Source: a virus
Taxonomy: Duplodnaviria; Heunggongvirae; Uroviricota; Caudoviricetes
Strand: one strand, 5' to 3'
Virus record (IMG/VR): IMGVR_UViG_2660238061_000002
Length of the DNA stretch: 10,033 nucleotides
Made by a program: the position numbers and the translations under genes. Position 1 is the first letter of the stretch; every line of letters begins with the position of its first letter. Below are positions 5,376 through 5,984 of the stretch, one piece after another. Under the pieces are notes generated by a model that worked only from the letters and a program-made list of their open reading frames with translations, did no database searches and was not told the DNA's origin.

Positions 5376-5984
5376 AAGCGCCTGACGGCCCCCACCATTA
5401 CCAGCGGCGGCAGTCCTCCGGCCTTTTCCCTGACACCGGACGGAAAGCTGACCGCTAAAAATGCGGATATCAGTGGCAGTGTGAATGCGAACTCCGGGAC
5501 GCTCAACAACGTCACGATTAATGAGAACTGTCAGATTAAGGGGAAACTGTCAGCCAATCAGATTGAAGGCGATATTGTCAAAACGGTCAGCAAGTCTTTC
5601 CCCCGCACGAACAGTTATGCCAGTGGCACCATCACGGTAAGAATCAGTGATGATCAGAAATTTGACCGGCAGGTCATGATACCGCCAGTGTTATTCCGCG
5701 GTGGTAAGCATGAGAATTTCAACAGTAATAACCAACAGTCATACTGGTATTCAACCTGCCGGTTAAGAGTGACCCGCAATGGTCAGGAGATTTTTAATCA
5801 GTCCACGACGGATGCTCAGGGCGTATTTTCCTCAGTTATAGATATGCCTGCCGGACAGGGGACGCTGACACTGACATTCACCGTATCTTCATCAGGAGCG
5901 AATAACTGGACACCAACAACCAGTATCAGCGATCTGCTGGTTGTGGTGATGAAAAAATCCACAGCAGGTATCAGTATCAGCTGA
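5376..5984 (+). CDS. J: Lambda-like protein J, C-terminal receptor-binding region, variant 1 ([52 protein letters not shown]…[21 protein letters not shown])
   Basis: First 50 or so residues match recalled lambda J; the distal domain diverges from lambda; stop TGA 5982-5984. Confidence 0.88.

Follow-up and report, generated by a model that had tools for sequence, protein, structure and literature searches.

Two allele classes of the lambda-type J receptor-binding domain in prophage fragments of an Escherichia coli draft assembly

Two J 3′ ends in a window of concatenated contigs

The stretch of DNA analysed here (the window, 10,033 bases) carries two 3′ ends of a lambda-type J gene, one on each strand, and both are followed by a terminator-like hairpin and lom, i.e., in the order found in lambda (Table 1); stf, which comes next in this order, falls past the ends of the contigs. 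The two encoded C-termini, referred to as variant 1 and variant 2, match the Pfam family PF12421 (Ig_GpJ_C, 'Tip attachment protein J, C-terminal receptor binding domain') well above its curated cut-off of 26.2 bits, over aa 78-202 in variant 1 (E 3e-37, 128 bits) and over aa 52-182 in variant 2 (E 4e-40, 137.6 bits). Both also align end to end with residues 931-1131 of the solved lambda J (8iyk_J; E 2e-60 and 1.9e-50, respectively), confirming the original prediction that they are C-terminal receptor-binding regions of J. The identity to lambda J over about 200 aa is 57% for variant 1 and 52% for variant 2, much of it in a shared fibre block, in agreement with the further claim that both differ from the distal end of lambda J. 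Both regions gave the translations predicted for them. However, the variant 2 interval, 9464-10014, carries two extra 5′ bases and is out of frame when read from 10014, which gives stops.

In lambda, J forms a trimeric β-prism fibre followed by an Ig-like domain, four distal loops of which enter the LamB lumen; LamB binding spreads the domains, and the resulting twist propagates until the tail tip opens (PMC11101478). By homology, each copy in the window would comprise the end of such a fibre and the Ig-like receptor-binding domain (RBD). The hairpins behind the two copies differ by a compensatory change in the stem (T-A in copy 1, C-G in copy 2) and in the loop (GAAA vs. TTTC), which accounts for a local dip in identity at 5989-6016, and the two lom copies share 90-100% DNA identity in 30-nt windows.

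Sixteen runs of N, each exactly ten bases long, divide the window into 17 pieces, the matches of which are scattered and not collinear; among complete E. coli genomes, none holds at least 80% of the window in one place. The phage-like pieces correspond to the end of H and the start of M, the V-G region (twice, as variants), the middle of J, the portal gene (reverse strand), the 5′ part of J, gene I, the 3′ end of J with lom, and a second 3′ end of J with lom (reverse strand). Another reverse-strand piece matches the stretch of tail genes immediately upstream of V (L001 5185-5414, E. coli A21), and the remaining pieces belong to other E. coli repeats. The contig at 1663-1857, from the V/G tail-gene region, is an allelic variant of the final 195 nt of 972-1652. 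Exact 62-nt terminal matches between contigs were found in two independent cases; overlaps of this k − 1 type mark the pieces as contigs of a de Bruijn graph, suggesting an assembly with k = 63. The window strings together short, repeat-derived contigs of an E. coli draft assembly and is not a contiguous stretch of genome. The contigs on either side of the N10 runs are unrelated, and any open reading frame or adjacency that crosses a run is artefactual.

These features also define how the two J copies should be read. A full-length J open reading frame, which would encode a tail-tip protein of ~1130 aa with hub and FNIII domains, is absent from the window, and both copies end at contig joins. 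Their adjacency is artefactual, no genome has them as neighbours, and both are truncated at the 5′ side by the assembly. The J-proximal 62 nt of the variant 2 contig are an exact copy of 5431-5492, and the first mismatch to variant 1 comes directly after these 62 nt; only 33 codons of the proximal flank of variant 2 are visible because the assembler, rather than biology, sets the contig start. Concatenated repeat contigs can thus make unlinked prophage fragments look adjacent, and the boundaries of a fragment may likewise come from the assembler.

The scattered N10-joined pieces, the lack of a complete genome that covers most of the window in one place and the exact terminal overlaps would also fit a pairing of the two J ends by contamination, a mixed culture or chimeric contigs, rather than by two prophages of one genome. 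However, each J contig is collinear at 97-100% identity with gpJ-lom loci of complete genomes, showing that neither is chimeric; the contig at 5375-6625, for instance, aligns over its whole length at 97.2% to E. coli A21 gpJ-lom (L001 14925-16175), where the match is the 3′ end of a 3399-nt gpJ. Furthermore, up to nine copies of the core occur per complete E. coli genome (medians of 1 for variant 1 and 2 for variant 2), so two alleles in one strain are normal, and we give an artefactual pairing only a slim chance. Two prophages behind the two distinct J-terminator-lom contigs are plausible, and we infer that both J copies reside in one genome.

Several contigs without J sequence were also characterized. 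An open 463-codon fragment at 6877-8265 (minus strand), cut at both ends by the contig, contains nine RHS repeats (Pfam PF05593, E 1.7e-58) and is presumably part of an rhs element. The contig at 3230-5054, the ends of which match IS1, carries open reading frames for an Rce1-like CAAX protease (3538-4308) and a GyrI-like protein (4341-4793), and at most 42% of it is covered in one place by any complete E. coli genome. At 2507-2675 (minus strand), the RtT RNA element (Rfam RF00391) matches with 58.9 bits and is overlapped by a marginal match to a tRNA model, and ARAGORN found no tRNA gene there; these two matches were the only ones of their kind, and an rRNA or tRNA origin of the stretches poor in open reading frames was rejected. 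Other repeat-type contigs, at 1-504, 1868-2149 and 8277-8870, are a flank of gadA (99.8% identity and two places in each genome), a fragment of a β-strand-repeat autotransporter (median of three places per genome) and a DUF5906 fragment.

Table 1 Coordinates of the features in the window
Feature	Position	Strand	Remarks
N10 runs	505-514, 962-971, 1653-1662, 1858-1867, 2150-2159, 2463-2472, 2667-2676, 2899-2908		
N10 runs, continued	3220-3229, 5055-5064, 5365-5374, 6626-6635, 6867-6876, 8266-8275, 8873-8882, 10015-10024		
62-nt terminal match 1	1591-1652 and 1796-1857		
62-nt terminal match 2	9953-10014 vs. 5431-5492		
Mid-J contig	2160-2462	+	96.4% identical to L001 14518-14819 (E. coli A21 gpJ)
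Contig with 5′ part of J	2909-3219	+	96.8% identical to L001 12238-12548 (E. coli A21 gpJ)
Variant 1 contig	5375-6625	+	Between the N10 joins 5365-5374 and 6626-6635; J 3′ end, terminator, 3′-truncated lom
Variant 1, last 202 codons of J and stop	5376-5981, stop 5982-5984	+	A8-type allele
Variant 1, proximal conserved block (aa 20-52, TPDGK...NVTINENC)	5433-5531	+	Upstream of the Pfam RBD match
Variant 1, divergent core (aa 53-182)	5532-5921	+	Most of the Ig-like RBD
Variant 1, predicted OmpC-contact loop (aa 78-81)	5607-5618	+	By homology to phi330
Variant 1, predicted OmpC-contact hairpin (aa 113-122)	5712-5741	+	By homology to phi330
Variant 1, predicted OmpC-contact rim hairpin (aa 175-180)	5898-5915	+	By homology to phi330
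Variant 1, distal conserved segment (20 aa)	5922-5981	+	Last strand of the domain; 19/20 aa identical
Terminator-like hairpin between J and lom, variant 1	6002-6021	+	Matches the position of an annotated terminator in phage 434
lom (Ail/Lom outer-membrane protein), cut by contig end	6051-6625	+	Pfam PF06316, E 1.5e-116, profile positions 1-191 of 199
Variant 2 contig	8883-10014	−	Between the N10 joins 8873-8882 and 10015-10024; J 3′ end, terminator, truncated lom
Variant 2, last 182 codons of J and stop	10012 to 9467, stop 9466-9464	−	VT1-Sakai/1A2-type allele
Variant 2, proximal block	9914-10012	−	
Variant 2, divergent core	9527-9913	−	
Variant 2, distal block	9467-9526	−	
Variant 2, equivalent of the predicted contact loop	9815-9838	−	DSRAPERW
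Variant 2, equivalent of the predicted contact hairpin	9704-9721	−	ERENND, short hairpin
Variant 2, equivalent of the predicted rim hairpin	9533-9550	−	VNDWYP
Terminator-like hairpin between J and lom, variant 2	9425-9444	−	
lom, cut by contig end	8883-9395	−	Pfam PF06316, E 2.9e-101

Conserved flanks, divergent core and cassette exchange

At the protein level, the two variants are identical at 124 of 187 positions (66%; BLASTP, E 4e-89), and this identity is distributed very unevenly. In the proximal flank 32 of 33 residues are identical, with a single S/A difference, and in the distal flank 19 of 20, including a 17-residue segment that is the same in both; in the core (variant 1 aa 77-182), only 55 of 110 are. 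The DNA follows the same pattern, with 93-100% identity at 5431-5520, 23-67% over 5581-5898, and a return to about 90-100% from 5929 through lom, except for the dip at the terminator loop. The best divergent block bounded by two breakpoints is 5606-5920, in which 47% of the columns differ vs. 7% outside it (Fisher p 2e-50), and this statistic was reached in none of 200 permutations. Synonymous divergence (pS) reaches saturation in the core, at 0.75, compared with 0.09 for the proximal flank and 0.25 for the 20 distal codons; over variant 1 aa 53-182, pS is 0.71 and pN 0.29. The contrast between flanks and core, both in identity and in pS, rejects uniform divergence along the region; alignment and breakpoint scan thus bear out the predicted arrangement of near-identical proximal and identical distal segments around a diverged centre.

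The proximal block, which by its position belongs to the central straight fibre, is nearly the same in an alignment with lambda, 434, 21, mEp460 and VT1-Sakai. When phi330 is added, discrete allele classes appear behind this near-universal block, namely lambda, 434/mEp460, 21, variant 1 and variant 2. The distal segment is common to phage 21 and VT1-Sakai and absent from lambda and 434; likewise, the distal strand together with lom is common to the classes of variant 1, variant 2 and 21, and is not found with those of lambda or 434. In phage 21, the J of which is 83% identical to variant 1 in this region and shares its long 12-residue hairpin, stf follows J directly, without an annotated lom.

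A core of this kind could have arisen in place, by rapid point mutation under the diversifying selection of a phage-host arms race. Point mutations are known to alter the receptor use of lambda J (cited in PMC11101478), and the amino-acid changes between the two variants are indeed concentrated in the binding domain. However, selection at the protein level does not yield a core pS of 0.75 next to a flank pS of 0.09, and pN/pS in the core is below 1. In addition, both alleles are found again, without change, in phages that are unrelated to one another and in thousands of genomes, and a near-isogenic pair of phages differs only in the patch at the J end. On the synonymous saturation, the point-mutation arms race was rejected, and we regard an origin in place as very improbable.

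That pair consists of the Stx2a phages LC727857, which carries an allele of the variant 1 type, and LC727858, which carries one of the variant 2 type. Over most of about 5 kb on each side the two are 99-100% identical, with a few short stretches of 92-98%, and only across about 0.7 kb at the 3′ end of J (LC727857 approximately 4800-5583) does the identity fall to 54-88%. This is an allele swap between near-isogenic phages. Patches of 92-97% at 2101-2300 and 6384-6683 of the LC727857 locus hint at further exchanges. Taken together, the synonymous saturation, which is confined to the core, and the near-isogenic pair favour the exchange of old alleles over mutation in place, and they uphold the earlier reading of the mosaic as one of the recombinational kind. 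That lambdoid phages exchange the receptor-binding domain of J in mosaic fashion is textbook knowledge.

For the mechanism of exchange, homologous recombination is the probable candidate. A cassette of about 0.4-0.8 kb would carry an allele from one phage to another; the conserved fibre-coding sequence may serve as its left homology arm and the conserved end of J together with lom as its right one. The fusion point used in engineering, lambda aa 964, lies inside the proximal block.

Allele classes, receptor and prevalence

Variant 1 is identical at 201 of 202 positions to the chain in PDB 9wca/9wcb, 'A8 gpJ 713' (E 4.5e-129), and the sole mismatch falls in the lambda-derived part of that chimera, upstream of residue 964. 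A literature search found no paper that describes PDB 9WCA/9WCB. Variant 1 is also 96-99.5% identical to J of the phages 2H10, Turner, PhiR30_1, phi330 and BP-4795-like Stx phages. Variant 2 is 66% identical to the solved A8-type chain; it is 92.9% identical to J of VT1-Sakai, 95.1% to that of vB_EcoS-640R1, and 92-95% to those of many Stx-converting and other lambdoid phages.

A second engineered J terminus, 1A2, was available only as recoded DNA in a supplement without protein sequences (PMC11338833), and it was therefore compared by frameshift-tolerant alignment of protein to DNA. The published 1A2 DNA agrees with VT1-Sakai J at 168 of 182 residues exactly and at 11 more in a frameshift-compatible manner; as the text was machine-read from a PDF with insertion and deletion errors, identity to VT1-Sakai is near-certain but not base-perfect. 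For variant 2, 157 of the 182 residues agree exactly and 11 in the compatible manner, and the domain is free of indels, whereas for variant 1 only 110 agree exactly. Thus, 1A2 is an allele of the VT1-Sakai type within the noise of machine reading, and variant 2 falls in the same class. In VT1-Sakai itself (AP000400.1), J is annotated as 'truncated protein by a mutation', and its C-terminal domain still corresponds to the functional 1A2 graft.

The OmpC dependence of both allele classes comes from the literature. In A8, the C-terminus of a J that occurs naturally in E. coli was joined to lambda J at residue 964 (Brödel et al., Nature 2024, PMC11338833), and the chimera delivers DNA to lamB-deleted cells via OmpC of both MG1655 and EDL933. 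The 1A2 graft reaches lamB-deleted cells via EDL933 OmpC and not via K-12 OmpC, and one or both of the two chimeras served 21 of 23 OmpC variants (PMC11338833). Phage phi330 does not plate on the Keio ompC deletion strain, and complementation rescues plating (PMC12502783). Its OmpC contacts were predicted at E953-S962, A1015-P1020 and T918-Y921 in the authors' AlphaFold3 model, which is not a solved structure (PMC12502783). A literature search for the receptor of the VT1-Sakai-type J under other names gave nothing usable.

The two variants had been expected to use different receptors, and in its strict form this would mean different receptor proteins, e.g., OmpC for variant 1 and LamB or another porin for variant 2. 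Variant 2 does depart from variant 1 at all three contact elements predicted for phi330, which were placed on variant 1 through a gap-free alignment: the loop is 4 aa longer, the main hairpin is 5-6 aa shorter and of another sequence, and the rim hairpin carries three substitutions. Its loop lengths also equal those of the LamB-binding lambda J, and it is not identical to the 1A2 graft that was tested. However, 1A2 belongs to the same allele class, without indels and at about 92-93% identity, and needs a suitable OmpC in lamB-deleted cells, and variant 2 is only 52% identical to the lambda J domain. On the other side of the comparison, variant 1 equals the A8 graft and lies 2 aa from phi330, both of which depend on OmpC. 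Since both allele classes match OmpC-dependent grafts, the expectation of different receptors probably does not hold for the receptor protein itself, and we consider it unlikely that the two domains bind different ones. The comparison with J alleles of known receptor specificity, which had been proposed as a check, thus places both variants with OmpC-type alleles, and the LamB allele of lambda was not matched. It is likelier that the variants differ in which OmpC variants they accept than in which receptor protein they use.

By analogy with 1A2, the variant 2 subtype found in the window would also use OmpC. Relative to 1A2, it carries R99K, N101H and N102T in the equivalent of the barrel-inserting hairpin and D157N in the rim hairpin, and these four substitutions make a different range of OmpC variants possible. 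It is a tentative suggestion that this subtype accepts a set of OmpC variants other than that of 1A2, and use of another porin is less likely still; if the suggestion is true, variant 2 would show how a single cassette class is finely retuned in nature.

We therefore return to the reading in which both J ends are OmpC-docking alleles of lambdoid tail modules, one of the A8/phi330 type (variant 1) and the other of the VT1-Sakai/1A2 type (variant 2), exchanged as cassettes, which we consider a well-supported and likely account. The window would then hold the J 3′ ends of two lambdoid prophage tail modules from an E. coli draft assembly, each continuing into a terminator and lom, with the two copies representing two old, discrete alleles of the domain. 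Both types would dock on OmpC, and the range of OmpC variants that each accepts is most likely governed by the differing loops.

Both alleles are widespread, with thousands of complete E. coli genomes in which they are already annotated as gpJ. The variant 2 core occurs in 3350 of 5426 complete E. coli genomes; 192 records carry it at an identity of at least 99% and 3036 fall in the band of 90-95%, so that the variant 2 of the window is a rarer subtype of the commonest J allele class in E. coli. Of the 12 complete E. coli genomes listed for this core, 8 match it at 100% identity. For the variant 1 core, 1340 records from complete E. coli genomes show at least 99% identity. The matches listed for either core all bear the annotation gpJ or that of another phage tail protein.

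Both allele classes were already known, one of them structurally solved and both functionally characterized, and both have served to redirect lambda particles to OmpC; they are nothing new. The finding is real but ordinary, with little value beyond annotation. It does illustrate that a difference in J allele does not necessarily imply a different receptor protein; here it probably reflects different ranges of OmpC variants, which is relevant to predicting the host range of prophages and to choosing gpJ grafts for delivery vectors.

Comparison with known J proteins

We note how the two variants relate to J proteins with a known receptor. First, lambda J, which binds LamB (PDB 8IYK, 8XCJ, 8XCK), belongs to the same domain family and has the same architecture, preceded by a nearly identical fibre block, whereas its last strand is different (FASDVQVMVIKKQALGISVV). 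The LamB-binding allele of lambda was rejected as an identity for either variant on this C-terminal strand and on the identities of 57% and 52%.

Second, J of phage 434 is the OmpC-binding protein of classical h434. The J proteins of 434 and mEp460 share the family and the conserved proximal block with the variants, whereas they have longer loops, a different C-terminal strand and 49-60% identity to either variant; they constitute an independent OmpC-binding allele. The 434-type allele was likewise rejected as an identity, at 58% for variant 1 and 49% for variant 2 and with different loop lengths.

Third, the J of VT1-Sakai (Sp15), 1A2 and many long-tailed Stx1a and Stx2a phages has the same length and the same loop lengths as variant 2 at about 93% identity. 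About 13 of the 182 residues differ, four of them in the equivalents of the two hairpins.

Fourth, J of the Stx2a phage vB_EcoS_phi330 is 96% identical to variant 1 over 202 aa, with 2 aa different in the RBD, and it is followed by lom in the same order as in the window. However, phi330 has the fibre-proximal residues LFAVSITSSGN where variant 1 has a different 11-residue stretch, and such a difference next to a nearly equal RBD indicates the same cassette on another J body.

Finally, variant 1 is the same as A8 gpJ, residue for residue, over the whole graft from lambda position 964 to the C-terminus, with one S/N difference upstream of the graft. The natural codons of the window match the published DNA of the A8 tail by eye, apart from the noise of machine reading. 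The two differ in their setting: A8 is an engineered fusion on the body of lambda J, whereas the window has the allele in its natural form, attached to the J body that belongs to it, in a truncated contig.
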